A stretch of 58,346 bases of DNA from IMG/VR virus record IMGVR_UViG_3300020477_000025, positions 1 to 58,346 of that record. One strand, written 5' to 3'. Source of the stretch: a virus (taxonomy: Duplodnaviria > Caudoviricetes). Below, in pieces: positions 6,001 to 41,330 of this stretch (position 1 is the stretch's first letter; the number at the start of each line of letters is the position of its first letter). A model generated the notes under the pieces. The model did no database searches. It was not told the origin of the DNA and saw only the letters and a program-made list of their open reading frames with translations. The position numbers and the translations under genes are program-made.

Positions 6001-8477
6001 AGGCCGGCCGCGGCCCCTTTGATGATAGTTATGCAAAGTATGTGGCTGATTTAAAACTTGTTGGGCAGTCCTACTCTATACTGCCAGATTTTACTATTAC
6101 CCCACACTTGCGAGTGGTAATGAATGATGCCAATTCTGATTTTTATGCAGAGCACTTATATTCTTATGAAATTTCCGGAAGTGGACATATACCCGGCTCA
6201 GATGTTACTGCAGATGAGATCGGCCCCCCGACGCCTTCCAATCTTGGTGTGACATCTTCTATTAGAAAACACTTTTTAGAAACTTATAGCCACAGCGACT
6301 TTATGCAAAATTTAGAGCCAGTACGCAATTTGTATGGAGAACCAACAGAAATATCTATAACATTTTCAGCGGTCAAAAAGTTTTTACCACAAAAAGGATT
6401 TTACCCTGTACAAAGAACTCTACAATTAGCAACAGAATTTTCTAAATCATATGGAGATGTTAATCCGGCAAATGCCATTCCATATCCTACTGAATTCTCT
6501 GATGTTAATGCTAGTAATGCAATTTTTACCTCTAGTAATCCGGGCAAAACGGGCACTTGGAAAACGCTGCTTGAGCCATTTTATGCTCCCGGCATTATGT
6601 ATAACACCATTAAGGCGGGAGTGGCTGTAGATTATCCAATTGTTGATCAGAAAGCAATGGACAGTGGGGAATTTACAAGAACAACTGGCTCGGCCGGCGC
6701 ACCCGCTACAACTCATGGTCCTAATCCGTCAATGCACTGCTCCGCGTCGTATTATTCCAGAATGCCATTTGAAGCAATTATAGAGCCGGCCTTTTATGGC
6801 CGAAAAGTCGCTGGATCATCGAGTTTTGCCGCGAATCCAGCAAATGCTCCGCATTCGGCAGATTATGCGCTCAATGCGAATCTTCGTTTATATGATATGG
6901 ATCCGGAGATTGTTATTGATAGTACAGCATCGCTACAAAACACTGATGGCGTTTATGAGCGCCATGCACACAACTTTTTTGCGGAGGTGCCAAGGTTCTT
7001 TTTAGAAGATGGTGTTACGACGGTAAGATCTAAACCACAGGATGAGTGGCTCTTCAAGGGGCCTTTGACATCATCTACTGGAGGTATCAGGCAATTTTCA
7101 ATGGATATTCGCGTTAAAAAACCTAAAGACTTTTTTACACACCAAGCTTCAAGTTATTTTGGCCACTATCCGTATTTTCATCATACGCCTTCGTGGTACG
7201 GATCATCCCCTATTGCGACTTGCACTAGTGCCGTGCTACCCTGTAGGGGACATGCTCTATCCGGCACTTATGCGCATCGATACAATGAAGCTTTTGTGAG
7301 GATTAAATTTGATCCAACAAAGATAGCGAACGAAGATCCTGTTAAATTTAATAGTGGCAAATTTAGTTTATCGGACATTATAGCTCATAGCACCACCGAA
7401 TTTAATAATCTTGCTTGGTCTCAAGCAGCCGCATCCGGCGACATGATAACTCCGGGCATGCATATGACTGCCAGCATTGATATTTTTAATCAGACTGGCG
7501 ACGGCGCGTGGGTGATTAACACAAAATTTGAAACGCCGATTTTTAATTTCTTTAATGTTTCAACAGGTAGTAATGCTCTCGGCTCGCTCGCGGAAGGCGG
7601 CGTGTACAAGGGCATTTGGCATCAGTACGCCCCTCTTGTGACAGGAAGTGAAGGCTTATTCTTATCAGTCCAAGATGCTCCAACCAAGCTAGATGTTGAT
7701 GCATCGGGCTCCTTGGCTGAAGCTTGTGGCTTCACTACGGGAGAGAAAAGGATAGGGAGAGTTGCCAATGAGAAAGTCATAAACGAAGCAGTCGTTGCCA
7801 TTCCATTTTATACTGATGATAAAACCAAGGAGGAGAAATTCTTTAAAATACCAGTTGCGATGTTTGAAGATAGTTATAAAAGAGTTGTTTCCGGTTCAAG
7901 CAATACATCGATCGATGACATGGTTTATAAACAATACCAGAACAAATACGTATTTCCTCCTAAATATGACTTTGTAAGAATAAGGGCAAAAAAGAATGCT
8001 CCCCTTACCAAACCAGTCGATTTTTCGCCGGCCATGGCTCCATTTACCATGTATGTGTTTGAATTTTCTCAAAAATTTAACAAACAGGACTTGGCAGATA
8101 TTTGGCAGAATGTAATGCCAAAAAGCGGGTTAGATGTCAAAAAAGAGGACGTTTTGCTTAAACACCCAACGACGGAAGGCGAATTCTTCAGCAAGGCAAT
8201 ACTGGGATATAATGATCTTGAAAGAATCCCCTCAGATATGAGGTGGAAATTATTTAAGATTAAACAAAGGGCAAACAATAATTATTACGAGTCTATGAAA
8301 ACTTATATTTCTGGAAGCTCACACACCGGGCATGAACATCATTATGATTTTTCCGCCAATTGGCCATATGATTTTATGACGTTTGTTAATTTGGGCAAAA
8401 TGGATGTTGAGTTTGGGTTTGAAAAACAAGTTCAAACATCTTCACAATTTCAAAATGGATTTACAGGTAGCTATTAA
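3..8477 (+). CDS. Giant virion structural protein (baseplate wedge/fibre-like) with LamG/concanavalin-A-like domains; probably 5'-truncated by the window edge
   Basis: 2824-aa ORF open from the window start. LamG signatures DGKWHHYAIV...LYVDG...FSGSIDEFRFW; baseplate-wedge-like segment NNLSYINKSKGTEKAFRNLFRCFG; a second LamG-like region near aa 490-710; Ser/Gly/Thr-rich. Confidence 0.7.
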   Translation: MRVGDWPGSPHSRAVIFDLRDDEGLAQLVIGTNQTSGDDDIRYSLWLGNGGGSWSAKLDKGLTTGVETSAEQDTDDGKWHHYAIVQSSASSGFNIKLYVDGQKTDEFNTQALTDYAGAVPFPSHITGTLQGTIGALGGEAGTNAGLGWGKFSGSIDEFRFWKVARTHEEIGRNYIAPVGGGLVSSSVNKDLGVYFKFNEGILGNTTDATVLDYSGRGCNGTWTGYDPGITIAYSGSTGMRTTESAMVEAGAVDREEEDPIIYSTHSAIQELLTEKQTSGSQYDLTNNASLYNSIPKWILEEDEKGEDLKQLLQIMGSYLDTLYGQVGELVKMREPSYAISGSSPYPFTGKLLNSMGFEVPEVFVGADVLEAVFSRDEKRVYEDKLFKVKHLIYRNIYNNLSYINKSKGTEKAFRNLFRCFGVDDELVNLNTYSDNQTLTFEDNYNITYTKRKAIDFSGISGSNRSATIFQYPLTDSDFGYLSSSDNPHTPLTVEAEIIFPKFDHLSHSLGSTLLTSSLFGCHTAKAAHATTTYGNTTTDFDVAAYAIRVSENSDEVYFRLTSSKMGFDLTSSVFPTSGSSQGHKVYDNSKWNFAFRVKPEEYPWSEDITSSQRRTVGFYGVQSVGGRVISEFDVSKSIDVDKPDGAQEGRGIGHWITGSNKRFYIGAERTNWNGALVNQSDVRFLNFSVWADYLTNNEIKYHARDPDNYGRTNPFQNTFLFETGSTNAAVGGAGWGGHGIPDVYVPRIDTLAFRWDFEHITGSEGVNIKVFDVASGSASFQRGLRTGSPFWTGSQVVPKDAYGNDNYRDLVRANHTATGTFFEAGSEPYSLEFVPTARQGIPEQVQSSDMISILTRDTEVFARDIRPTKNFFAVEMSMYQIISKNMLNFFASIDDFNNLIGEPVNIYRGRYKELEKLRNLFYERVQNQPDVDRFVNLYKWIDAALDSVLINLIPASAAVADKARSIVESHVLERHKYRHIFPDLTTVAKHGNITALEKPKKGSGADPETKNSVASAYQVQGRENLIGVSIQSGKGATGSPIVPFNRRSPSVMIDGAGDFNFDEEKSPYWWKHRAEKDREPFYSSDEAVAAGTRHQLHHNMESSSVNRASNVANFLADFNSNAPSSKITSVKKPHRASSYINTFREATDAQDGLFAAFATGSGTNKKAGLLPLQVLDAPADELKNARIKPMIVYARANSQDRGGQERLPFTVASSAVDDGYASQLNKGSAASQWTRTSIEDSHKDIYGPHYEVPMQGPFTEENVGGHLYRHNNLFITASSIPRGKSRTEGYHITITPAKNSLIVTNPRSFEGEYDSIYAWGARFKGAKRPVNIQNLSSSGYAVNDTSVAGTGPARTNFGSAINSNYNKGYEVISINDAAVNNRYFVKNLGASAVETSYGGFGQFWWIPDTKSFSPAEVVRGRNRITDFTKLDRTNTGSNSHVFVSKFSAPGSYADQGAGFTDIESGQYSPYNALPYRNLTIRRALNKLWARTTSVRGTDSLFGEEYANFHKIQRNDGVRITGSETDPLRRKIDRDNYWVSRAIPKNDLGYSWIEKSWIGHVNSDLTVSSTLGNVSHITSSDYAVLLGFSSSIDTITFVSCSELGTTYDGAPAQANLSVGAQIGRATTVPDKNELFTPVDFAGMNTIIVDPITASFAMLGGEWALPYLQQAHDFYATGSENILGFPSSSLLGEDGALAYLNMTFGGALRLGSGVANTVDSEVGGSQVHILNMLLAHRGNIHGYPTWKQLRVGQHPIARWHKKNNIYQNVKRIYSSQYNNYINLPYQIVQSPVTSKHKPVIQGYDDFSIKYDFGNNFHYFGQTYISSSNKIVFNRKEWDIYPNYEKSFLQAQSGSEWKIIKYGETVFPKDENAYSIRARRPAVFEFGWRDDIIERIGNNLGDPSTLYGWLNGAGMRNSQKMAVGLNKSGASVVESWLSAWPMDAYTESLGSDSTKYERSGELMRTDTVDFADIQKHYAMPDSASAKFGKFYYHCKPSNLVHLQAGRGPFDDSYAKYVADLKLVGQSYSILPDFTITPHLRVVMNDANSDFYAEHLYSYEISGSGHIPGSDVTADEIGPPTPSNLGVTSSIRKHFLETYSHSDFMQNLEPVRNLYGEPTEISITFSAVKKFLPQKGFYPVQRTLQLATEFSKSYGDVNPANAIPYPTEFSDVNASNAIFTSSNPGKTGTWKTLLEPFYAPGIMYNTIKAGVAVDYPIVDQKAMDSGEFTRTTGSAGAPATTHGPNPSMHCSASYYSRMPFEAIIEPAFYGRKVAGSSSFAANPANAPHSADYALNANLRLYDMDPEIVIDSTASLQNTDGVYERHAHNFFAEVPRFFLEDGVTTVRSKPQDEWLFKGPLTSSTGGIRQFSMDIRVKKPKDFFTHQASSYFGHYPYFHHTPSWYGSSPIATCTSAVLPCRGHALSGTYAHRYNEAFVRIKFDPTKIANEDPVKFNSGKFSLSDIIAHSTTEFNNLAWSQAAASGDMITPGMHMTASIDIFNQTGDGAWVINTKFETPIFNFFNVSTGSNALGSLAEGGVYKGIWHQYAPLVTGSEGLFLSVQDAPTKLDVDASGSLAEACGFTTGEKRIGRVANEKVINEAVVAIPFYTDDKTKEEKFFKIPVAMFEDSYKRVVSGSSNTSIDDMVYKQYQNKYVFPPKYDFVRIRAKKNAPLTKPVDFSPAMAPFTMYVFEFSQKFNKQDLADIWQNVMPKSGLDVKKEDVLLKHPTTEGEFFSKAILGYNDLERIPSDMRWKLFKIKQRANNNYYESMKTYISGSSHTGHEHHYDFSANWPYDFMTFVNLGKMDVEFGFEKQVQTSSQFQNGFTGSY

Positions 8478-11845: not shown

Positions 11846-14800
11846 ATGGCATTTCCAAGAGAATGGAGTCTTTGGTTTAAAAGAGAGGCGCTTAAAGAAG
11901 ATAAGCTCCGAAAGCCTTTTTATGATTTTAATTATGTAATATATCCTGTTGCCGAAGACACATTAGAGACTGTCGGCACCGCGCCGGTGTTCCCTAGTCA
12001 AAACAAGGGTGCCGAACCGTATAAATATAATACTCCAAAAAAATTAAAAGACTTAGGCTTATCCGGACCAGTGCTTGAAGCAGACAAAACTTACTACATG
12101 GTTATGAGACTTAGGAATCAGGGTACTAAAGTTTGGAAACAGGATAGCACAAGCGATGATCATGTGGCGCTGGGCCCAAATATTTCGACGGATGATGTAC
12201 ACTTGGCCGGCGGCCCACCAACTGGTGATATACTCGGTTGGAAAAATGGTGATGATTTTGTTCCTTTTGTGAACTTCGCGAAAAAAATAGCATGCCGGAA
12301 TGTGATCAAAGACGAAAAGAAGCGCGTTGCGTCTGTGTGCACTGAAGAGGGAGCAACAAACTTTCACAAACTCGGTCAAAAGACTCTCGTGCCGTACACC
12401 CCAGACTCTTTTGGTGCAATAGATATAAATTCATATGCAGGAAAAGACGTTGGCGGTACCGGCATCAGCACCCCAACTGGCGATGCTTTAAAACAAATTT
12501 CGACTATTTGTCGCAACCCAAATATGCCGAGGAAACAACTAGTCACGCTGGCCTCTAGTTTAAATCAATGTAACTACATTTTGAAATTTATGTTAACATT
12601 TTTGGAGCAAAATGATACTTATACGCAAGAAAATGGATTGTGGGATGCCCGTTCCGCCCTTCAACAGGGTTTGGTTGATTATAGTAAATGTCCCGCCGAT
12701 AAGCCCATAAACAAGATGAGTGATTTAAAAGCTGTTTTTTCTGAAGCTGGTCTTGCGACTGTGGTGCGGCAAATATGGATACACTATGAGAAGCTTTTAA
12801 AGGCCGGCTCGTCAAAACCGCTGTGGGCCCCTTCTTTGCACGATCCCTGTACTCATCCCGGTTGGGGCGCCCCTTTGGTTCTTGGAAAAAATTACCCAGA
12901 AGGTATGTTTTATTCTAAGGTTTTAAATGCCCCGTATGCAACTTTGGGACATTGTTTGGATACAAGTGCACCACCGCCGCCAAAGCTTAATAATAAGTGC
13001 GCCCCCGTGCCCGGGAAATCACATTCAAAATGTTCGGGAGACTCTGTGCCCAATTATATTGACCCAGACGACGGAGACGAGTACACCTATAACTTCAAGA
13101 ATTATCCAACTTATGCAACTTGTTTTGATCACAATGATTGTAATTCGGAATGTCATCAAAAGTGCTATTGGGCAAAAGCAGCCGACAAAGGCGGCATGGG
13201 AAATTTCAATGCCGCAGACAAGAAGGCCGTTATGAAGTGTAAGCAGGAATGTTTAGAAAATCCCGCGCAACTTACTTATGGCCGAGCCGCGGATTCAGCG
13301 CCGGCCATTAAACAAGAAATTCGATTTGACATACCAAAACTCCATTGCAAAAAAGAAAATAAGCTCAGCAAAAATGGCACATTCAGGTGGGTGGAGAAAG
13401 ATATTAATGCGGTTGATATAACCGGCGCTAAAATTAAAACCTCCATGGCCTTTGCTGGTTTTTATTTTAGAACTCCGACGCTAGAAAAACTTAAAGATTA
13501 TCAAACAAAAAATGATGATGAAAAAATACCGCCGCTTTTTTCTTTTGCAATGGATATGTTTTGGCCAAAAGGGAATAAAAAATATAAATTTAGTAATCCA
13601 AGCCTTAAAAAATTTAATTACGAAGTTCCAACAAAACAGTTTGTTGAGTGGCAAAACGCTAAAGATGAAGATGAAAAAGTTAATCACCCGGGCGATATAT
13701 TTTCTGAAAATGAAAGAATTTTCTTTCACATAAAGAAAAAGCCACCACCGCCAATAAAGCCTCCAGAACCGAATAGCAAGATTGGCGAAGAAGAATTACA
13801 AGTAGATAAGGATATTGATGAAAAAGACATATTCAATACAACAGATCTTTTTGTGCCTGTGTGGCACCTTATCAATATAGATAAACAAGATTGGCCCCCA
13901 TATGGTGAAACATATTTTATGACAGATCACTATTGTGGCCCAACAGAGGATGGCTTTATGATGGGGAGCATTGATGCCCTTACAATGGAGACCATGAGTG
14001 ATAAGTTTAGAAAATATACAAATTCTATATGGCAGGTTGCAAAAATACAACCCGGCGCCACACCACGCATGGCCTTTGATGTTGATTATCAAATTAGAAA
14101 AGGCATTGTACCCGAAGGTACAAACGCGGAAGAGGTATACAACAAAATCAATAATCGCAATACAGCGAAAACAAGAAAAATTTTAAAAGATTGGATAAAA
14201 ACAGTAACGGATGACAAAACTTTTTCAAAAGATGAAGTGCCATGGCTGGCTGGGAAAACATTCAAAAGCAAAAGATATCCACATTTAACTGATACCGGTG
14301 TAAAGAAATCACAACCCGGATATGTCGAGCCAGCTTCTGATTTCGAAATAGAAGATATATTGAAGGTTGAAGCTATAACGAGAAAAACATTTCCACACGG
14401 CTCGGATTATAAATCTTCGGACACTGATGAGAATCTATATTGCCAGCACCCATACAATACTGGAAAATATTCTCCAAGGAAAAAGTGTAGATCATATGGA
14501 GTTGTGACACCCGCAATAAAACAGCAGTTGACACAAGGGCAAAAAACTAAGTGCAAAAAGACTGGCTGCCCGCCCGGGTATAAATGTCAGTCTTCGGGGT
14601 GCATCTGGCAGCAGGACTCTAATATAGCAAAAATTATTAAATCTTCCGACTACATGGTACAAATATCTGGTATACAGCCCGGATATGATTTTGATGATTA
14701 TAAAATTGATTTGCCCGGATATAGAACATACGATTATAAAGGGGCAACCGGCCTTACGAGCAATGAAAAAGAAACGTGGATTACAAGGGAGATCTTGCCC

Positions 14801-16522
14801 GGGCCCGGTAAATTGAATTTAAAAGTTGGTGATGAGATTGACAGAGTAATCTGGGGACAAAGCAATGAATATCAAAATTGGAAACCGTCTGTCGAAGTAG
14901 TCGAAGCAACGTTACCGTTTATCAAAGGGAGTGTCGATATATACAACGAAGAGGGGATAGATTATTTAATAAAGAACACAAAAGAAGCTCGCTACCCAAT
15001 GCTTAAGAAAAATATTAAATGGAGCAATCCAAATCCCAAGTCAATTGGTTTTCCAGCACGCCCAACATTTAGGCTCTCAGAGCCCCCCATCATTAGCACG
15101 CTTATTGAAATTGTTGATTCTATGGAAAATAATGACAATTGGCATTATGACATGAATTTCACATATAAACCGTGGGATAGAAATAGAAAGCCAATTAACT
15201 CATATTTGCAAGAAATGGATGTTGAGCCACATCTCATTGCAGTAGATAAATGCCAAGAAAATATTCTTAAAATATCAGAGGCTTCGGAACATTTATTGCC
15301 ATATGCTTATGAAAATGAAAAATATAAAGGAAACCCCAGTGATATGGGGAATATTAGTGATTGTAAACCAGTTAAACATGACACATCCGTGATTAGTGTT
15401 TCAAATAATATTATAGATAAAATTAATAAAACGGTTGATTTTAATAAAAATGCAACTTTATATAATGAAGTTACATTTGATATGAAAAATGATAAATATG
15501 ATACGCCTGTGCGTTCATTTTTGTTTTCCAACTTAAGCGAAGCTGAGAGGAAGGCTATATTTTATCACGTCGCCTCCGCAGATCATTCGGAAGAAGAGGT
15601 TGCCACCAAGACCTCTCTTATTTCAGAGCACAAAGGAAGCTTGAATTACGGCAATAGACCATATTTCTATCTTTCCAGAAATTATTCAACCGAAAAGATA
15701 ACGAACACCAATGTTAATAAGGGTATAGTAGAAGAAGATCTAATTTCTGCATGGCAATCGCCTACAAAAATTTCCGCTGCAACACTTTTAGACGACTCAA
15801 TTAAAGAAACAAAAGACGGTTGGGAATTAAATAATATAAAACTTAAAAAAGAATGGTTCCGTGATTATGGGGAACTTTCCGCCGGCAAATTGGCGAATTA
15901 TGAAGTAGTGGCTTATAAGCTTGTTAAATCAGGCACAAAAACAAAATCAAAAGTCAGTCAGGGCACCTTCGGCGCGTATGAACAAACCGGCGATCCAATT
16001 TATATTTACCCCAGCTTTGAAAAAGATGAAAAGAAGAGAATTATAAATTATATTGATACACAGGTAAAGTTGGGCAAAATGTATGAGTACGACTTGTATG
16101 CTGTAATGTTGGTATACGGCACCAAATATAAATATGTAAATCCCCAATTGGGCAGGGAATATAAGACTCACGAAGTTAATGGTGAAGAATTCAATGTCGA
16201 TTTAAAAGATAATTGGCAAGCGTATGTTAACGATATAAATAAAACACCAAGTGAGATACATCCAATTTACAGCAAACAACAGGTACTGCTCGGTGCCGGC
16301 GCAACCGGCGCTGTCGTAACAACTAAAAACAAAAATGATGTAAAATTGCAACAAAGAATAAAGGAGGGTCAAGTCAAAGACTGGAATTCGGGCCCAACTG
16401 CACAAGGTGTGGCTCATAAGTTTGAGTATGTGCATAATTATGCAATATCATCTTATGTGCAATCTAGACCTCATTTGGCTATATATGAAGTGCCACTATT
16501 AAGGAGACCTTTTAAGAAATGA
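11846..16522 (+). CDS. Large hypothetical protein with Cys-rich modules (probably virion-associated)
   Basis: 1558-aa ORF. Cys clusters such as TCFDHNDCNSECHQKC and CKKTGCPPGYKCQSSGC; C-terminal YIDTQVKLGKMYEYDLYAV resembles an FN3-like strand. Confidence 0.65.
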   Translation: MAFPREWSLWFKREALKEDKLRKPFYDFNYVIYPVAEDTLETVGTAPVFPSQNKGAEPYKYNTPKKLKDLGLSGPVLEADKTYYMVMRLRNQGTKVWKQDSTSDDHVALGPNISTDDVHLAGGPPTGDILGWKNGDDFVPFVNFAKKIACRNVIKDEKKRVASVCTEEGATNFHKLGQKTLVPYTPDSFGAIDINSYAGKDVGGTGISTPTGDALKQISTICRNPNMPRKQLVTLASSLNQCNYILKFMLTFLEQNDTYTQENGLWDARSALQQGLVDYSKCPADKPINKMSDLKAVFSEAGLATVVRQIWIHYEKLLKAGSSKPLWAPSLHDPCTHPGWGAPLVLGKNYPEGMFYSKVLNAPYATLGHCLDTSAPPPPKLNNKCAPVPGKSHSKCSGDSVPNYIDPDDGDEYTYNFKNYPTYATCFDHNDCNSECHQKCYWAKAADKGGMGNFNAADKKAVMKCKQECLENPAQLTYGRAADSAPAIKQEIRFDIPKLHCKKENKLSKNGTFRWVEKDINAVDITGAKIKTSMAFAGFYFRTPTLEKLKDYQTKNDDEKIPPLFSFAMDMFWPKGNKKYKFSNPSLKKFNYEVPTKQFVEWQNAKDEDEKVNHPGDIFSENERIFFHIKKKPPPPIKPPEPNSKIGEEELQVDKDIDEKDIFNTTDLFVPVWHLINIDKQDWPPYGETYFMTDHYCGPTEDGFMMGSIDALTMETMSDKFRKYTNSIWQVAKIQPGATPRMAFDVDYQIRKGIVPEGTNAEEVYNKINNRNTAKTRKILKDWIKTVTDDKTFSKDEVPWLAGKTFKSKRYPHLTDTGVKKSQPGYVEPASDFEIEDILKVEAITRKTFPHGSDYKSSDTDENLYCQHPYNTGKYSPRKKCRSYGVVTPAIKQQLTQGQKTKCKKTGCPPGYKCQSSGCIWQQDSNIAKIIKSSDYMVQISGIQPGYDFDDYKIDLPGYRTYDYKGATGLTSNEKETWITREILPGPGKLNLKVGDEIDRVIWGQSNEYQNWKPSVEVVEATLPFIKGSVDIYNEEGIDYLIKNTKEARYPMLKKNIKWSNPNPKSIGFPARPTFRLSEPPIISTLIEIVDSMENNDNWHYDMNFTYKPWDRNRKPINSYLQEMDVEPHLIAVDKCQENILKISEASEHLLPYAYENEKYKGNPSDMGNISDCKPVKHDTSVISVSNNIIDKINKTVDFNKNATLYNEVTFDMKNDKYDTPVRSFLFSNLSEAERKAIFYHVASADHSEEEVATKTSLISEHKGSLNYGNRPYFYLSRNYSTEKITNTNVNKGIVEEDLISAWQSPTKISAATLLDDSIKETKDGWELNNIKLKKEWFRDYGELSAGKLANYEVVAYKLVKSGTKTKSKVSQGTFGAYEQTGDPIYIYPSFEKDEKKRIINYIDTQVKLGKMYEYDLYAVMLVYGTKYKYVNPQLGREYKTHEVNGEEFNVDLKDNWQAYVNDINKTPSEIHPIYSKQQVLLGAGATGAVVTTKNKNDVKLQQRIKEGQVKDWNSGPTAQGVAHKFEYVHNYAISSYVQSRPHLAIYEVPLLRRPFKK

Positions 16523-17602: not shown

Positions 17603-17610
17603 ACTATTTA
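17603..17610 (+). promoter_or_regulatory. Putative phage late promoter (ACTATTTA)
   Basis: Exact ACTAWTTA motif in an intergenic gap, ahead of a GGGAG SD and the ATG at 17632; the motif recurs before other structural genes. Confidence 0.65.
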
Positions 17611-26858: not shown

Positions 26859-27593
26859 ATGAAGATTACAGTTGGTCGTCTTAAAACAATTATAAATGAA
26901 GAGTTGGAACTTTTCCAAGAAAAACACTTAGAGCCGGGAGATCCGGGTCATGACAAGGATTATGAAGAAAAATACGGCGATATGGAAACTCATGAAGAGA
27001 TTCTTTCTAAGCTTGAAGATATTTTAAAAACTTGGGAAGAAAAAGAATATGATTCCGACAAGGATCGCTGGGAAGAATATTATAAAGATATCGAAGCGCT
27101 TGCCGGCGAATTCCGAGAAGAGTTGGGGGATGAACCTGAAGCTGATGATGGCGAGTCCGACGAAGAGCCAAAAAAGAACGATAGAGAAGTTATAACAGGC
27201 GAAAAAGCAAAGTCGTTAGAAGAAATAATTAAACAAGAAATTGAAAGCATGTTGGGCGAAGAAGAATCATACGAAGAACGATTTAAGCCTAAGCTAAGCG
27301 AATCAAAAGACCATCCCGGCAAGGTGTGTGAGGAAGCGCACCCCGATGCGTCACACGAGGAATATATAAAGTCTAAAAAGAAAAGCCCATCAGCCAAAGT
27401 TAAGCTTTCACCAAAACAAAAGAAAGAGATGGATACGGATAAAGATGGCGATATCGATAAAAAAGATATGAAAAACTTGAGAGATAAAAAGAAAAGTAAA
27501 GAGAAGCCAAAAGCTGAAGAAAAGAAAAAGCCAGCAGCAGATAAGCCAAAGAAAAAGTCTGGTTCTAAGGTTTCAAAGAACTTTCCATACTAG
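26859..27593 (+). CDS. Highly charged putative internal head protein with EF-hand-like loop
   Basis: N-terminus MKITVGRLKTIINEEL; acidic N-half and Lys-rich C-tail; DTDKDGDIDKKD loop. Confidence 0.6.
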   Translation: MKITVGRLKTIINEELELFQEKHLEPGDPGHDKDYEEKYGDMETHEEILSKLEDILKTWEEKEYDSDKDRWEEYYKDIEALAGEFREELGDEPEADDGESDEEPKKNDREVITGEKAKSLEEIIKQEIESMLGEEESYEERFKPKLSESKDHPGKVCEEAHPDASHEEYIKSKKKSPSAKVKLSPKQKKEMDTDKDGDIDKKDMKNLRDKKKSKEKPKAEEKKKPAADKPKKKSGSKVSKNFPY

Positions 27594-27605
27594 TGAGGAT
27601 AAAAA

Positions 27606-27674
27606 ATGTGTGGGTGTGAAAATTGCAAATGTGAAAAACTCTGCGGCTGCTCTTGCTGCTGCGGAGATAAATAA
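27606..27674 (+). CDS. Unannotated 22-aa Cys-rich metallothionein-like peptide (MCGCENCKCEKLCGCSCCCGDK)
   Basis: My own translation. GAGGA SD at 27595-27599, ATG at 27606, TAA at 27672-27674. It fills the intergenic gap, and 9 of 22 residues are Cys in CxC/CC patterns. Confidence 0.7.
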   Translation: MCGCENCKCEKLCGCSCCCGDK

Positions 27675-27688
27675 CTACGGAGGGTAGA

Positions 27689-27883
27689 ATGGTGGCAGCA
27701 GCAAAAGCATTTATAGATCAAAATTTAGAGAGATTTATGTCAAAGAAACTTCTCGTTTGGCTAACTACAACGGGATTGCTCTTGGCAGAGAAGGTAGATT
27801 CAGAGCAGTGGATGATTATCGCCACAGCCTATGTCGGAACGCAAGGTTTCGTTGATGTAGTGGCTCGCTTCAAGGGCAAGTAA
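27689..27883 (+). CDS. Putative holin (small two-TM membrane protein)
   Basis: 64 aa with two hydrophobic segments, an SKKLLVW motif and a basic C-terminus; GGAGG SD; lies ahead of a spanin-like pair. Confidence 0.55.
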   Translation: MVAAAKAFIDQNLERFMSKKLLVWLTTTGLLLAEKVDSEQWMIIATAYVGTQGFVDVVARFKGK

Positions 27884-34939: not shown

Positions 34940-35236
34940 ATGGATATACTTTGGTTCATTTTATCCGCCTACGGCTTAACACAAATTTTAGTTTATGGTT
35001 CGATTTTTAAAAAAATAAGACCAGAAAAGGGTTTTTTTGGGGAACTGTTCCATTGCCCAATGTGTTTGGGCTTTTGGGTGGGCGTATTTCTTTACGGAAT
35101 TTCTTTTTACACAGAACTATTTACATTTGAGCTTAATTTGACAAACCCACTTATTTTGGGTAGTTTAAGTTCTGGTACATCATACGCTTTAAGTATGTTA
35201 TTTGGAGATGAGGGAATCAATGTTAAAAGGAATTAA
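34940..35236 (+). CDS. Small membrane protein with CxxC (DUF1360-like)
   Basis: Three hydrophobic segments; ELFHCPMCLGFWVG matches my recollection of the DUF1360 CxxC-x2-[FV]W pattern; AGGAG SD. Confidence 0.6.
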   Translation: MDILWFILSAYGLTQILVYGSIFKKIRPEKGFFGELFHCPMCLGFWVGVFLYGISFYTELFTFELNLTNPLILGSLSSGTSYALSMLFGDEGINVKRN

Positions 35237-35330
35237 TATTTTTGTTGATAATCATTGGATGCTACAACCACCTCGGCTTTGTAAAGGCGGATGCTGTATC
35301 ATGCGGGTAACGCCCGCAGGAATTAAATAA
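35220..35330 (+). CDS. Unannotated 36-aa Cys-containing micro-ORF (MLKGINIFVDNHWMLQPPRLCKGGCCIMRVTPAGIK)
   Basis: My own translation. GAGGG SD before ATG 35220; its TAA abuts the next ATG at 35331; it fills the gap exactly. Confidence 0.55.
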   Translation: MLKGINIFVDNHWMLQPPRLCKGGCCIMRVTPAGIK

Positions 35331-35540
35331 ATGAAGATAACTGTTAAAAAATTAAAACAAATTATTAAAGAAGAGATGGTCGCAGTGGGGGATCTTAACG
35401 TTACTATCGATTCCGCCACTGCCAGAAAATCTGTTGAAGATATTGATGCAGAGACTATAAAAGCAGCTATTTTGAAAATGGCTGACGACGACCTGATTTC
35501 TCAACTGGCCATTAAGTTACAAGGTATTAAATCACAATGA
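35331..35540 (+). CDS. Small putative internal head protein
   Basis: N-terminal MKITVKKLKQIIKEEM motif; directly upstream of the prohead protease. Confidence 0.6.
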   Translation: MKITVKKLKQIIKEEMVAVGDLNVTIDSATARKSVEDIDAETIKAAILKMADDDLISQLAIKLQGIKSQ

Positions 35541-36160: not shown

Positions 36161-36591
36161 TGATGAAGCGCAGCGAATTTAAAAATAAAATAAAACCCAT
36201 TATAGAAGAGTGTATTAAAGAAATACTTTTTGAGGAAGGCATCCTTTCTGGTATAATTGCTGAAGTGATAAGGGGCACAAAAAGTAACGTTGTTTACGAA
36301 TCTAGACATAATGAGGCAGAAATAAACAAAGAAAAAGAAAAAGTGACCGAAGAAAGAAAAGAAATTAAAAGAAAATCTAGCGAGTCAAGAAAAAAATTAT
36401 TGGATGCGATAGGAAAAGATGCTTTTAATGGTGTTAATCTTTTTGAGGGAACAGAACCAATGCGAGGCGGTGCTGCTAAGGACGGCGCTGCCCCGCAGTC
36501 GCCCTTGGCTAATATGGCCCCTAACGACCCGGGCATTGACATTTCAAATATTCCCGGCGTAAACGTCTGGAAACACCTAATTAAAGAGTAG
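36157..36591 (+). CDS. Hypothetical head-module protein
   Basis: 144 aa; N-terminal IKPIIEECIKEILFEE; lies between the protease and bS21. Confidence 0.65.
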   Translation: MMMKRSEFKNKIKPIIEECIKEILFEEGILSGIIAEVIRGTKSNVVYESRHNEAEINKEKEKVTEERKEIKRKSSESRKKLLDAIGKDAFNGVNLFEGTEPMRGGAAKDGAAPQSPLANMAPNDPGIDISNIPGVNVWKHLIKE

Positions 36592-36597
36592 TACGTT

Positions 36598-36795
36598 ATG
36601 AAAAGAGGACATGTAAAAGTAGAAGCTAGGCGAAACGAACCATTTGAAAAAATGTTAAAAAGATTTGTAAAAATAGTCAGGAAGGAAAGAATAATTGAAG
36701 AGGCCAGAGAGAGAATGTATTATGAAAAGCCCTCTGATAAAAAAAGACGCCTTAGAAAAAGAAGAAGAACACAAACTAAAGCACAAACTAAATAA
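36598..36795 (+). CDS. rpsU: Phage-encoded 30S ribosomal protein bS21
   Basis: 65-aa basic protein with V..R.NEPFEKMLKRF.K.V...I..E.R.R.YYEKPS.KKR, the bS21 pattern. Confidence 0.88.
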   Translation: MKRGHVKVEARRNEPFEKMLKRFVKIVRKERIIEEARERMYYEKPSDKKRRLRKRRRTQTKAQTK

Positions 36796-36799
36796 ATTA

Positions 36800-36807
36800 A
36801 CTATTTA
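36800..36807 (+). promoter_or_regulatory. Putative late promoter (ACTATTTA)
   Basis: Exact motif 21 nt before ATG 36829. Confidence 0.6.
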
Positions 36808-36828
36808 TAAGAGCAAGGAAAAGCAACT

Positions 36829-37320
36829 ATGACATTACCATCAGCATTATACGACCAAAGATTAAAAGCGTCTCACACTCGCACACGTCGGCCGCTCTCA
36901 CTGTATTATACTGAGGCTGTGCCATCAGGTAGTCAAGATATTCCTAGTGAAACATGCGTCGTTACGACATGTGCTTCCGGCGATCTTGAAGATGCTTTAA
37001 ATGCCCCTGAAGCCGGCGCAAATGGGTACGCCACTGGCAACGCTTCGCATCTTCATATACAAATTAATAATAATGATACAAATGAAAATTTGACTTTGTA
37101 CGCTTATAATTATGTTTTTAAATCATGGGCGCCGATATATCTTCCTATGGGTCAAAATCAAGCAACAACAGATGCATCTTTTGTTGCTGCCACTTGGGCC
37201 ACAATTGACGGGGCAAAACATGTGACTGTTCCAATTTATGGAATTGATAGAATTGCATTTGTACATGGCAGCAGCGTCGACGCACATTATATGATCAAGG
37301 CAGCAGTTAGCACATTCTAG
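36829..37320 (+). CDS. Hypothetical virion protein (beta-rich)
   Basis: 163 aa with its own late promoter and AAGGA SD, in the head cluster. Confidence 0.6.
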   Translation: MTLPSALYDQRLKASHTRTRRPLSLYYTEAVPSGSQDIPSETCVVTTCASGDLEDALNAPEAGANGYATGNASHLHIQINNNDTNENLTLYAYNYVFKSWAPIYLPMGQNQATTDASFVAATWATIDGAKHVTVPIYGIDRIAFVHGSSVDAHYMIKAAVSTF

Positions 37321-38587: not shown

Positions 38588-40546
38588 ATGTCAGGTATTG
38601 TAGAAAGATTAACTGAAAATATCGTTTCCCGGGATCTTGCAAAGGAAGGCGCTGCTCTGCTTACTAAGTGGGAGAAGACCGGCCTTTTGGAAGGGATTGA
38701 GAATGATAGAAAGAAAAACAGCATGGCTGTTTTGCTAGAAAACCAAGCCAAGGAGCTTCTTCGCGAAGTTTCCGCCATGGCTAATGCGGATGTTGAGGGC
38801 TTTGCGGCCGTCGCATTTCCGATCGTTCGCCGTGTATTCGGTGGACTAATTGCTAACGAACTCGTTAGTGTACAACCGATGAGCTTGCCCTCGGGCCTCA
38901 TCTTCTTCTTGGATTTCCAAGTTGCAACTCAAAAACTGGGCTATAACACTGGCGCACCGGCTGATTCACTCTATGGTGGTCAAGTTGTAGGCCAGCAGAT
39001 TACTGGCGGTGTTGATTTAAGCGGGTTCAAGAACGCGGCTCAGGGCGCTTCTGGTTCTTGGGGTCAAGAGACAAGCTTTTACAGCTTGAATCAGGGTTAC
39101 TCATCGGCAACTGGTAGTGTGAAAGGTACAGACGGCCTTGAGGTGGTTATTGTCGCTTCAGGCACTGTTGGCGGTACATGGGAAGGTGCATCCGGTCACG
39201 GGCATACTTTAATTAAAGCTGGTACCGTAAAGGCCAGTGAATATTCAGACTTGGGCGATAGACTCGTTCAATACGATCCGGATCTGGTAGGCAAAATTGC
39301 TATTGTTTGCACTGTTTCAGGTAGTTCTGCGTTCAGTCAGCTTGATACCAATAACCTAACGGCGATTGAAGCTGTTTCAGGTTCTGGTGCAACGCTCGGT
39401 GCAGCGGTCAATACCGATCCGCGTAGTGATACTGGCGCTGGATATTTCCACACTGCTGGTAGATTAGTTCGGCGTCTTACTCGGCCAGATCCAATCATGA
39501 CTGCCAAGCAGCTTGCTGGTTCGACCGGCGGTGAAAGAGAGCAGAGATACCTCATGGTATTCGCTGCGACTGGTTCTGAAACCGCAGCCCAGATGTCAGC
39601 GTCTTGGTGCTACCAAGGATACAAGAACGCGTCGGGCACTAAGGTGTGGTTTGAGTATCCGATTAAGGATAACTTTGCCAATGTCGGCAGCCGTGCCCTC
39701 GGTGGTGTTGCTGGTAGTGACCTCTGGGGCTTGGAAGAGGCGACCAATGCTGTCGGCGATACGCAGGGTGTCATCCCTGAGATCGACATCAAGGTTGATT
39801 CTGTAAGTGTTACGGCACAGACCAAGAAGCTCAAGGCTAAGTGGACTCCGGAATTGGGACAGGATCTCAATGCCTACCACAACCTCGACGCTGAAGTTGA
39901 GTTGACCTCGATTCTTTCAGAGCAGATTGCTTTGGAAATCGATCGTGAGATTCTCGTTGACCTCGTTAAGGGTGCCACTGCTGGTACGCTCTACTGGTCA
40001 CGCTCACCCGGTTTATTCGTTAACAAGGAGACTGGTGCAGAGGTTGGTGCGTTGTCCGCAGCGCCTGATTTCACCGGTACGGTTAGCGAGTGGTATGAGA
40101 CGTTGCTAGAAACCGTCAATGACGTTTCGGCTCGTATTCACCGCAAGACCATCCGTGGTGGTGCGAACTTCCTCGTTTGCAGCCCAGAAGTTGCTTCGAT
40201 TCTAGAGTTCACCTCTGGTTTCCGCGCTTCGATTGCTGTTGACGAAAACGGTACCGCCGGCGGACAGAAGACTGGTACTATTTCGAAGAAGTGGGATGTC
40301 TATGTTGACCCCTACTTCCCAAGAAATATTATTCTTGTTGGTCGTAAGGGCAGTAGCTTCCTTGAGAGTGGCTATGTATACGCTCCTTACGTTCCGCTGC
40401 AGGTCACGCCTACTATCTTTGGGCCGGAAGACTTCGTGCCCCGTAAGGGTGTCATGACGCGCTACGCGAAGAAGATGGTACGTCCCGATATGTACGGCCT
40501 AGTTGTTGTACGCGGTCTGATTGGTGAGGCTGGTGCAACTAGCTAA
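38588..40546 (+). CDS. gp23: Major capsid protein (T4 gp23-like) with large insertion
   Basis: VQPMSLPSGLIFFL, TKKLKAKWTPELGQDLNAYHNLDAEVELTSILSEQIALEIDREI, GYVYAPYVPL and GVMTRY; strong AGGAGG SD; codon usage suggests high expression. Confidence 0.96.
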   Translation: MSGIVERLTENIVSRDLAKEGAALLTKWEKTGLLEGIENDRKKNSMAVLLENQAKELLREVSAMANADVEGFAAVAFPIVRRVFGGLIANELVSVQPMSLPSGLIFFLDFQVATQKLGYNTGAPADSLYGGQVVGQQITGGVDLSGFKNAAQGASGSWGQETSFYSLNQGYSSATGSVKGTDGLEVVIVASGTVGGTWEGASGHGHTLIKAGTVKASEYSDLGDRLVQYDPDLVGKIAIVCTVSGSSAFSQLDTNNLTAIEAVSGSGATLGAAVNTDPRSDTGAGYFHTAGRLVRRLTRPDPIMTAKQLAGSTGGEREQRYLMVFAATGSETAAQMSASWCYQGYKNASGTKVWFEYPIKDNFANVGSRALGGVAGSDLWGLEEATNAVGDTQGVIPEIDIKVDSVSVTAQTKKLKAKWTPELGQDLNAYHNLDAEVELTSILSEQIALEIDREILVDLVKGATAGTLYWSRSPGLFVNKETGAEVGALSAAPDFTGTVSEWYETLLETVNDVSARIHRKTIRGGANFLVCSPEVASILEFTSGFRASIAVDENGTAGGQKTGTISKKWDVYVDPYFPRNIILVGRKGSSFLESGYVYAPYVPLQVTPTIFGPEDFVPRKGVMTRYAKKMVRPDMYGLVVVRGLIGEAGATS

Positions 40547-40572
40547 GTCAGTTTGACTAGGAATTAATTTCC

Positions 40573-40607
40573 GGCCCCCCGCTCTTCGGAGCGGGGGGTT
40601 TTCTTTT
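40573..40607 (+). terminator. Rho-independent terminator after the MCP gene
   Basis: CCCCCCGCTC-TTCG-GAGCGGGGGG, a 10-bp stem with a cUUCGg tetraloop, followed by TTTTCTTTT. Confidence 0.92.
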
Positions 40608-40615
40608 ATTGTGAA

Positions 40616-40623
40616 ACTATTTA
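40616..40623 (+). promoter_or_regulatory. Putative late promoter (ACTATTTA)
   Basis: Exact motif just after the terminator, ~125 nt upstream of ATG 40750. Confidence 0.6.
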
Positions 40624-40624
40624 T

Positions 40625-40721
40625 AATAACTTGAGATTATTCTCCGGGGTTGGGGCCACTTACCCTTAAAGAAGCATAGTCGAAGTGGCTGGGTATGTTT
40701 CGTGATTAAAATCAAGTTATT
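40625..40721 (+). ncRNA. Candidate structured RNA / 5' leader: three-way junction with kissing loops
   Basis: P1 AATAACTTGA(40625-34)/TCAAGTTATT(40712-21); P2 GGGGT/ACCCT; P3 GAAGCATA/TATGTTTC; the loop sequences GGCCACTT (40654-61) and AAGTGGCT (40683-90) are complementary. Confidence 0.6.
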
Positions 40722-40749
40722 GCAATAACATAATAAGGAGGAAAAAATT

Positions 40750-41250
40750 ATGGGCAAAAGAACAGGATTAGGGCATGTTGAAACCCTAATGGAAAATTTA
40801 AATAGAGACTTACAGATGTCCGGATCAACGTTACATTATAAGAAAGCCAACTCGGCACCAACCGGAACCAGCACGCAACTGACCGCGGCTGATACGGGAA
40901 AAGTTATTTTCATGGATGCGTCGTCTGCTAATACGGTCACGTTGCCGGCAGTCGCCGACACCTCTGCTGGGTGGCACATAAAAGTTATTTTGATGGAGAC
41001 TGGCGCAGCCGGGATCGTCCAGACTTCTGGCACCGAGGATAAACTCATGGGGCAAGTTAATGTTGTTGATGCAGATGGCTCAACGCAGACTGTGACAAAT
41101 GATGCCGATGGCGATACAATCACATTTGTTAATGGATGTTTAGCTGGTGCTTGGGTTGAGATTATATCCAACGGCAATATGTTTTTTGTGCATGGGTTTG
41201 GAACCCACGCGACCGATTCCAACAAGCTTACGTTAACCAAGGCAGACTAA
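40750..41250 (+). CDS. Putative head fibre/decoration protein
   Basis: LTAADTGKVIFMD...TVTLPA...GW motif typical of phage fibre/decoration beta domains; very strong SD (TAAGGAGG); follows the MCP. Confidence 0.55.
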   Translation: MGKRTGLGHVETLMENLNRDLQMSGSTLHYKKANSAPTGTSTQLTAADTGKVIFMDASSANTVTLPAVADTSAGWHIKVILMETGAAGIVQTSGTEDKLMGQVNVVDADGSTQTVTNDADGDTITFVNGCLAGAWVEIISNGNMFFVHGFGTHATDSNKLTLTKAD

Positions 41251-41293
41251 GGAAGCCTAATAATAATTACATATAATTATTGTTAACAAAATT

Positions 41294-41330
41294 AAGCCCT
41301 CATGGTAATATTACCATGAGGGCTTTTTTT
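41294..41330 (+). terminator. Rho-independent terminator formed by a perfect 32-bp palindrome
   Basis: AAGCCCTCATGGTAAT|ATTACCATGAGGGCTT (41294-41325), continuing into a T-tract. Confidence 0.8.

Follow-up and report, generated by a model that had tools for sequence, protein, structure and literature searches.

A conserved RNA leader with covarying hairpin loops follows the capsid gene of uncultured marine T4-like phages

The prohead RNA (pRNA) of phage phi29 is a small RNA in its own right, and its copies pair with one another through their loops on the portal of a phi29-type motor. A different use of RNA structure was described for the maturation-gene leader of phage MS2, where an upstream complementary sequence pairs with the Shine-Dalgarno (SD) sequence around three arms, a metastable earlier fold gives a brief window for translation, and covariation in the long-distance helix is reported for Levivirus (PMC4615214). 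Here we analysed a DNA stretch of 58,346 nucleotides (nt) from an uncultured tailed virus (IMG/VR record IMGVR_UViG_3300020477_000025, hereafter the window), in which the gene for the major capsid protein (MCP) is followed by a folded element and then by an open reading frame (ORF) of 166 amino acids (aa). The comparison of homologous loci indicates that many uncultured marine T4-like phages share the element as a conserved, folded RNA about 100 bases long, and, judged from the aligned sequences, its two hairpin loops have co-evolved to pair. The reading that we favour, with modest confidence, is that of a late phage mRNA whose 5′ leader, formed by the element, limits translation in cis in the manner of the leader of the MS2 maturation gene.

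A first-pass annotation of the window had drawn the element as a three-way junction of helices P1, P2 and P3 with complementary loops L2 and L3. All of the drawn helices were present in the sequence (Table 1), and the minimum free energy (MFE) structure given by RNAfold for 40616-40749 contained the same P1, P2 and P3. The loop complementarity was confirmed as well, with seven Watson-Crick pairs and one G-U between L2 and L3. The single-sequence fold of 40616-40749 had an energy of -29.9 kcal/mol with a z of -1.73, 11 of 200 shuffled sequences folded as well, and the opposite strand gave a z of -1.60. The single-sequence fold was thus within chance, and the case therefore rests on comparison. 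The whole intergenic region folded at a z of -4.18 because the terminator hairpin of the capsid gene drives this value.

A capsid protein search of viral contigs gave at least 603 matches, from which 80 related loci were taken. A covariance model was built from 17 gap-free sequences with P1, P2 and P3, leaving the loop-loop helix out of the model, and it matched 12 of the 81 sources (window included); the other relatives carried different leaders or none. The family was then enlarged by pattern scans. The first scan, with both loops fixed, gave 85 stretches with 6 chance matches, and 62 distinct promoter-to-ATG sequences were extracted. A second scan of viral contigs fixed TTCTCC and the palindrome downstream of P1 and left both loops free, and a third, of metagenome contigs, left L2 and the two central bases of L3 free. 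The metagenome scan gave 116 complete members among 120 loci (104 distinct, 70 new), and viral and metagenome contigs together held 180 distinct versions of the core. A loop-free scan for the class with a CG-centred palindromic hairpin was too unspecific, as only 3 of 119 stretches were true members and none of them was new.

The element had a fixed position in these genomes. The 3′ end of the MCP gene was found upstream of it, at a median distance of 95 nt, in 77 of the 78 members with at least 250 nt of upstream DNA. The sole exception (L058:4846-6196, a contig shared with L111) had an extra gene inserted, so that the element followed the capsid gene at a distance of about 1.2 kb. One copy each was present in five long records, among them three complete genomes of 185-195 kb, and in the record of the window itself (58 kb, estimated to be 32% complete). 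The closest capsid relative, with 89% identity, had no RNA element (L001:4959-5065); there the promoter led directly into a different gene (MAKRQPRH...). Since both the RNA and the gene differ at this locus, the leader and the gene seem to be swapped as one cassette. When 40200-41300 was compared with GenBank phages by blastn, one uncultured record was found, matching only in the capsid gene part. Among the at least 120 matches listed for the loop pattern in genome contigs (host or prophage), nhmmer found no credible member, and two matches were weak and partial (E 4e-5 and 0.009).

The first-pass annotation had made its proposal dependent on conservation and covariation at homologous loci. 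P2 and P3 were found to covary strongly and the loop-loop helix was kept, with weaker evidence for P1. For this analysis, 100 distinct homologues were aligned to the covariance model (105 were chosen and five near-duplicates dropped), a procedure that fits the alignment to the structure of the model and so favours that structure. Paired cells made up 89.7% compared to 77.9% in column shuffles (0 of 500 reached the observed value), and when the partners were slid by 1-3 columns only 35-48% of the cells were paired. Changes on both sides were seen in 23 of 33 pairs. P3 was the most variable helix, with 9 of its 11 pairs changed on both sides and up to six pair types per position. In P2, 4 of 5 pairs had changed on both sides; alignment pair 34-46, for example, was GC in 68, UA in 20 and AU in 8 sequences. 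The 5-bp core of P1, ACUUG/CAAGU, was retained in nearly all of the 180 distinct sequences; variation was mostly from A to G on the 3′ strand, giving U-G pairs, and in one divergent member (L112) the core was fully compensated. RNAalifold on a plain MAFFT alignment had recovered only P2 plus a spurious helix because gaps were misplaced in P3, and this alignment was replaced by that made with the covariance model.

The seven-pair helix between L2 and L3 was paired in all 100 aligned sequences, with compensatory changes in two pairs. Six loop pairs were retained in every one of 114 distinct sequences from viral contigs, including 81 found by the scan with both loops free, and in 104 of 104 distinct metagenome sequences; the seventh pair alternated between U-A and U-G. 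The loops occurred in three haplotypes, GGCCAC/GUGGCU, GGCGGC/GCCGCU and GGCCGC/GCGGCU, the first found in 83 and the second in 21 of the metagenome sequences, and no crossed combinations were seen. The predicted loop duplexes had energies of -11.8 and -12.5 kcal/mol for cognate partners compared to -8.9 and -7.9 kcal/mol for crossed ones. The independent events behind this pattern were few, namely two pair replacements in the GGCGGC sequences and one in the divergent L198, because the GGCGGC sequences share other features and look like a single lineage.

The loop covariation is equally compatible with pairing inside one molecule and between two. Pairing of L2 in one RNA with L3 in another, perhaps along with self-pairing of the palindromic hairpin P4, would give dimers or rings that could tie translation to the concentration of the message or build an RNA scaffold, as in phi29 prohead RNA or the ROOL and GOLLD assemblies. 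The loops have the classical kissing format (6-7 pairing bases, flanked by 2-3 unpaired ones on the 5′ side and 0-1 on the 3′ side), and P4 is a perfect palindrome of 12-14 nt, centre included, in all of its three variants. Geometric reasoning also suggests that P2, the loop helix and P3 in one stack (about 23 bp) could not be bridged in one molecule by a J2/3 of 4-7 nt. By the same kind of reasoning, however, P2 plus the loop helix (12 bp) would about equal P3 (11 positions), which would permit a folded-back monomer. Moreover, this RNA is an mRNA leader 5-30 nt away from a strong SD and not a separate small RNA, and its phage has a terminase-portal packaging set, so a pRNA-like role would be unneeded. 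The proposal of a prohead RNA in the first-pass annotation hence gained no support, and pairing between molecules in general appears highly doubtful.

The comparison also bears on the strand and on whether the signal lies in RNA or DNA. G-U pairs were frequent, with UG in 26 and 18 sequences at positions of P1 and G-U in 100 of 100 at one loop pair; on the other strand these would be C-A, and the RNA is therefore read from the + strand. In the 62 sequences that had been found without fixing P4, the hairpin had three palindromic forms with the centres UGCA, CG and ACGU, and its closing pair was G-C in 49 and G-U in 13. This variation fits an RNA hairpin better than a DNA operator, and it also weakens the strict palindrome that self-pairing between molecules would use. 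It is barely credible that a DNA-binding regulator uses the repeats as operator half-sites. Inverted repeats are indeed formed at the DNA level by GGCCAC...GTGGCT and by the P4 palindrome, but the G-U pairs are strand-specific, P2 and P3 covary as RNA stems, and the spacing of the P4 half-sites shifts between 4 and 2 bp with a G-T closing pair in the same 13 of 62 sequences. A further pairing, UAUUC:GRRUA between J1/2 and J3/1, would extend P1 and cover part of the pyrimidine tract in J1/2. All five pairs could form in 55 and four of five in 31 of 101 sequences, and it was rejected as a general extension of P1 because it holds in only about half of the members.

The element probably has its own late promoter, as the first-pass annotation had proposed. 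The CTAWTTA box in front of it also precedes at least nine other structural genes in the window; for these nine copies, the distance to the start codon is 27-47 nt, and a similar TARTAR(C) comes after the box (sites at window positions 17604, 21995, 36801, 37361, 42591, 45273, 48583, 50798 and others). CTANTTA occurred 19 times on the + strand compared to 5 times on the - strand of the window. In 62 family members, the box positions C1, T2, A3, T5, T6 and A7 were invariant. CTAWTTA with TARTAR(C) is thus a candidate for the late-promoter consensus of this phage group. By analogy with T4 late promoters, transcription would start at the A of ACUUGA, at about 40629. The outer P1 bases 40625-28, drawn as pairing with 40718-21, coincide with the downstream consensus of the other late promoters in the window, and the outer four pairs of the drawn P1 are probably part of this consensus and located upstream of the start site. 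The suspicion in the first-pass annotation that part of the 5′ strand of P1 precedes the start thus appears justified, as these bases are probably not transcribed from the proximal promoter. With a start at about 40629, P1 in the late transcript would have 5-6 bp and begin at the first base, and the palindrome would form a hairpin of its own (P4) beside P1 instead of competing with it. The earlier idea that it competes for the 3′ strand of P1 is therefore doubtful, since the P1 bases in question probably lie upstream of the start.

A helix at the very 5′ end may also suggest a passive leader, in which the fold only protects the message from decay that depends on the 5′ end or serves as a standby platform for the ribosome. 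Protective stem-loops begin at the 5′ end, as in the ompA leader, and P1 probably starts at the first transcribed base. A simple hairpin would suffice for either role, however, and a passive leader leaves unexplained why 180 variants keep the junction, a loop helix of 6-7 bp and an anti-SD tract with a base order on which the predicted masking of the SD depends. We consider it quite unlikely.

This tract, UUCUCC (40640-45) in J1/2, is complementary to the SD. In the scan that did not fix it, J1/2 contained either TTCTCC or one of the all-pyrimidine words TTCTTC, TCCTCC, CTCTCC, TTCTCT and TTCTTT. We folded 110 distinct leaders from the presumed start to ATG+12, the start site being assumed. 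The predicted probability that the GGAG of the SD is unpaired had a median of 0.06. Its mean rose from 0.18 to 0.69 when only J1/2 was shuffled, and 104 of the 110 sequences fell below their own controls. The J1/2:SD duplex averaged -9.7 kcal/mol compared to -6.35 kcal/mol for reversed J1/2. The state with P1 and a free SD and the state with a paired SD differed by a median of only 1.2 kcal/mol; for the window the energies were -26.8 and -28.8, respectively. When the folded prefix ended just before the SD, P1 was in the MFE structure of 86 of 109 sequences. With the full leader, P1 was in the MFE structure of 16 of 109, and a J1/2:SD helix enclosing P2, P3 and P4 was in that of 87 of 109.

These results suggest a model in which the order of synthesis sets the fold. 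Transcription from the CTAWTTA promoter would begin at the first base of P1, and P2 and P3 would fold on the emerging RNA and become locked together via their loops. P1 would then close the three-way junction while the ribosome-binding site is either unmade or free, giving a permissive fold. Once the SD has been synthesized, UUCUCC of J1/2 could pair with it in a helix that encloses P2, P3 and P4 as a cloverleaf and displaces P1. The ribosome-binding site would be hidden in this closed fold, and each message would therefore give a limited burst of translation, with no effector needed. Such a burst would suit a virion accessory protein that is needed far below the copy number of the capsid protein, the product of the very highly expressed gene next to it. 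A switch on the downstream gene, as the first-pass annotation had offered, is the best-supported reading, but it would work through the anti-SD tract, which was absent from that proposal. In related phages, a different structured leader precedes the same gene family, which suggests that this gene needs control at the RNA level.

Several points weigh against the limiter. The strictly conserved loop-loop helix is present in both folds, and the model assigns neither the helix nor the invariant junction a necessary role. The evidence for P1 consists mainly of wobble-compatible changes and the one fully compensated sequence, and 8 distinct sequences have one uncompensated mismatch. The J1/2:SD helix showed no covariation; own partners gave -9.72 kcal/mol and swapped ones -9.54 kcal/mol, and 21 of 2000 permutations reached as low a value in a test that ignores relatedness. 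The SD must also match the 16S rRNA, and the conservation of the CUCC tract may therefore have another cause; it may reflect tertiary structure of the junction or an effector site. All of the folding figures came from a nearest-neighbour model that excludes the loop-loop helix and pseudoknots and uses an assumed start site. Three RNA or presumed RNA runs and one DNA run, all of them in the form of contigs, were compared with the region; RNA-library contigs of relatives covered the end of the capsid gene, with a depth of 0 to 2.2 over the leader. Finally, a low virion copy number of the downstream protein is an assumption of the dosing model.

The conserved junction points to an effector-responsive switch as another reading, which we regard as credible though unlikely. 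The junction held by the loop helix would act as an aptamer, with either a small molecule or a protein of the phage or host as its ligand, and binding would stabilize P1 and free the SD, whereas the anti-SD would close the ribosome-binding site when the effector is missing. Candidate effectors are the basic (Arg-rich) N-terminal helix of the encoded protein itself, an unassembled virion component or an assembly intermediate. Phage morphogenetic proteins such as the P22 scaffolding protein and T4 gp32 are known examples of autogenous control by assembly state. The architecture is that of a purine aptamer, with a P1-closed junction, conserved J1/2, J2/3 and J3/1, and L2-L3 pairing that fixes P2 and P3. 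The two folds are nearly isoenergetic (median difference 1.2 kcal/mol), invariant junction and loop bases beside freely covarying stems are typical of RNAs that bind ligands or proteins, and the sole conserved part of the downstream protein is an Arg/Lys-rich helix. However, no riboswitch family of Rfam 15 was found even when matches with an E of up to 10 were admitted, nothing links the regulated gene to metabolism, and J3/1 is variable in both length and sequence. The conserved N terminus also occurs behind a different type of leader and behind short leaders, and it can equally be read as a coiled-coil anchor. If true, an effector sensor would be a new class of riboregulator setting the translation of a hypervariable virion protein, and the first switch of such architecture known to control a phage structural gene.

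No Rfam family accounted for the element, in agreement with the first-pass annotation. The whole window gave no match to Rfam 15 at the gathering score. In 40540-40800, no riboswitch or ribozyme family was found at E up to 10; three weak rows touched the leader, namely RefA9 (minus strand, 19.4 bits), Clostridium-PBP (19 bits) and Fibrobacter-1 (11.8 bits), and all other weak matches were wholly on the terminator hairpin. Six divergent members searched against Rfam at E up to 1 likewise gave no riboswitch or ribozyme, and all rows were on terminators. These searches bear on a self-cleaving ribozyme or other processing signal, which a three-way junction with a loop-loop contact could also form. 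The general shape is hammerhead-like, with three helices and a tertiary contact between loops, but no ribozyme family of Rfam 15 matched even at the relaxed threshold, and the CUGANGA and GAAA motifs in hammerhead order are missing from the junction strands on either strand. We therefore consider processing very improbable. A literature search, whose coverage excluded subscription journals, found no description of the motif. PMC10690425 lists 8,495 candidates for structured RNAs (named 'DNAVirus_N') that come from intergenic regions of IMG/VR. The motif was not found in its text or in the one table searched, and a second table holds BLASTX results for RNA-virus candidates; the motif may be among the unnamed candidates of this catalogue.

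The downstream proteins of relatives were 139-299 aa long with only the N terminus in common (MGxRRxGLxRxExLxENLKR); in the homologues compared (L002, L003, L022, L058, L063, L070 and L071) about 20 N-terminal residues were kept. This pattern would fit an anchor with an exchangeable outer domain. The 166-aa protein matched no Pfam family, and the protein Atlas gave only unnamed viral clusters. An AF2 model of low confidence (pLDDT 61) placed a helix at residues 6-24 followed by strands, and Foldseek against the PDB gave no match reaching E 0.001. A PHROG tail-fibre match was weak (E 7.5e-4), and the 'head-fibre' label of this gene is a guess.

A second, different conserved leader was found before the same gene family in L004:4887-5013, L009:1391-1502, L014:4882-4993, L026, L040, L045, L067, L072 and L080, and in a short form in L012:1374-1457, L029, L030, L061 and L069. 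Besides the promoter box, this leader contains between one and three covarying hairpins, and UAGUUAU...AUGAUUA could form a closing helix. Downstream of an invariant AUGAUUAWAAAUGG come a small hairpin and, after it, AAGGGAGG. The AUG of the invariant block opens a short upstream frame (MI[KI]NG...) that ends near the main start or, in L004, continues into it in frame, and the block resembles J3/1 of the window (GUGAUUAAAAUC). A homologue of the same gene at L013:4776-4894, its ORF cut to 23 aa, is preceded by a short leader whose single hairpin, directly upstream of AAAGGAG, carries CUCC in the loop; this arrangement may represent a minimal anti-SD device.

The coordinates of the features are collected in Table 1. 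A gap of 203 nt separates the capsid gene from the 166-aa ORF, and it contains, in order, a G+C-rich terminator hairpin with a T run, the CTATTTA box, the P1/P2/P3 helices, the 14-nt palindrome, AAGGAGG and the ATG. Equivalent terminator hairpins were present at related loci. The first-pass annotation had called this the only long non-coding stretch of the window, which was incorrect, as other gaps of 237-300 nt without an ORF of at least 70 aa are located at 27593-27883, 35236-35537 and 36591-36829; these three gaps, as the window in general, gave no Rfam family at the gathering score. The assignment to a T4-like phage was upheld in the sense of a distant T4 relative. The window is a myovirus structural module that includes a large terminase, portal, prohead protease, gp23-like capsid protein, head-tail adaptor, sheath, tube and baseplate among its genes. 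The best tblastn matches of the capsid protein were in Flavobacterium phage immuto (50%), Microcystis phage Mel-JY01 (44%) and Rhodothermus phage RM378 (43%), and by capsid protein sequence these three phages, at 43-50% identity, are the nearest cultured relatives. These relationships correspond to the Far-T4 neighbourhood of PMC4360716, the available part of which mentions neither promoters nor intergenic RNAs. Two very large ORFs, 3-8477 (2824 aa) and 11846-16522 (1558 aa), matched no PHROG family at E 1e-5; the first touches the first bases of the window, and its true start may be beyond them.

Table 1. Features of the leader and its neighbourhood (positions in the window)
Feature	Coordinates	Strand	Basis
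P1 as first drawn, AATAACTTGA with TCAAGTTATT	40625-34 with 40712-21	+	sequence check
Late-promoter-like motif CTATTTA (40617-23) with downstream TAATA; putative start at about 40629	40617..40628	+	motif comparison
P1 5′ strand ACUUGA, probably the very 5′ end of the transcript	40629..40634	+	pairs with 40712-17
J1/2 with pyrimidine tract UUCUCC (40640-45), candidate anti-SD; its 5′ part can extend P1 via J3/1	40635..40645	+	conservation
P2 hairpin, GGGGU 40646-50 / ACCCU 40662-66, with 11-nt loop L2	40646..40666	+	covariation
L2 pairing word GGCCACU(U), GGCCACTT	40654-61	+	sequence check
Loop-loop (kissing or pseudoknot) helix L2:L3	40654..40690	+	six invariantly paired positions and a U-A/U-G seventh
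J2/3, UAAA in the window; UAGAAA, UUGAA and similar in relatives	40667..40670	+	alignments
P3 hairpin, 11 positions (40671-81 / 40691-701), with 9-nt loop L3	40671..40701	+	covariation
P3 strands as first drawn, GAAGCATA / TATGTTTC	40671-78 / 40694-701	+	sequence check
L3 pairing word (A)AGUGGCU, AAGTGGCT	40683-90	+	sequence check
J3/1, GUGAUUAAAA, variable length, conserved GA; may pair with the 5′ part of J1/2	40702..40711	+	
P1 3′ strand UCAAGU	40712..40717	+	
P4 palindromic hairpin GUUAU-UGCA-AUAAC, GTTATTGCAATAAC	40716..40729	+	two-base overlap with P1
Shine-Dalgarno AAGGAGG	40735..40741	+	sequence; ATG at 40750
Putatively regulated gene, 166-aa protein with conserved basic N-terminal helix and hypervariable beta-rich remainder	40750..41250	+	ORF
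Major capsid protein gene, 652 aa, gp23-like, far-T4 type	38588..40546	+	PHROG phrog_138, E 6.6e-73
Intrinsic terminator of the capsid gene, G+C-rich hairpin then T run	40573..40607	+	sequence, folding

Myoviruses of the Far-T4 type, abundant in the sea, lack close relatives in culture, and the control of their gene expression is almost uncharted. The element combines a large family (180 distinct sequences) and clear covariation with a rare covarying loop-loop helix, a plausible built-in mask of the SD and a fixed site in the virion module. As a model of how DNA phages may set the dose of a virion accessory protein at the RNA level, the leader would be both compact and testable. Should its loops pair intramolecularly, RNA structural biology and design would also gain a new natural kissing-loop junction.

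Compared to known systems, the likenesses were partial. The unit may correspond to a T4-type late transcription unit, in which late genes are preceded at a set distance by a short A+T-rich promoter box, but the T4 late-promoter box is TATAAATA, unlike the CTAWTTA box of the window. Like phi29 pRNA (RF00044), the element is a phage RNA with a three-way junction and two mutually complementary, covarying loops; in contrast to pRNA, it is an mRNA leader between a promoter and an SD 13 nt before the start codon, in a phage with a T4-type terminase and portal, and the covariance model of pRNA did not match it. The L2-L3 contact of the lysine riboswitch and the kissing loops of the cobalamin riboswitch are likewise intramolecular loop helices of about six pairs in regulatory leaders, but these have other folds and need bends such as the K-turn, none of which is conserved in P2 or P3 here. 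The purine riboswitch (RF00167), especially in its translational adenine switches, shares the P1-closed three-way junction, the L2-L3 pairing and a platform that would act on the SD. This likeness is architectural only, as the model gave no match at the gathering score. The loop helix here has 6-7 Watson-Crick pairs compared to two in the riboswitch, P2 (5 bp) and P3 (11 positions) differ in length, the candidate anti-SD is part of J1/2 itself, which at 11 nt is long, and the regulated gene encodes a putative virion protein. The maturation (A-protein) leader of MS2 and Levivirus has no sequence or model similarity to the element, which belongs to the late mRNA of a DNA phage and not to a replicating genome. 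The covarying loop-loop helix between two arms is missing in MS2, whereas the long-distance helix is reported to covary in Levivirus (PMC4615214) and does not covary here. In both cases, however, a long structured leader precedes the gene for a virion protein needed in few copies, which for the phage described here is a presumption. In both, a tract near the 5′ end can pair with the SD so as to enclose three arms, and an alternative fold of the 5′ end leaves the SD open first, features that for the element described here were predicted in silico, the latter from thermodynamics.

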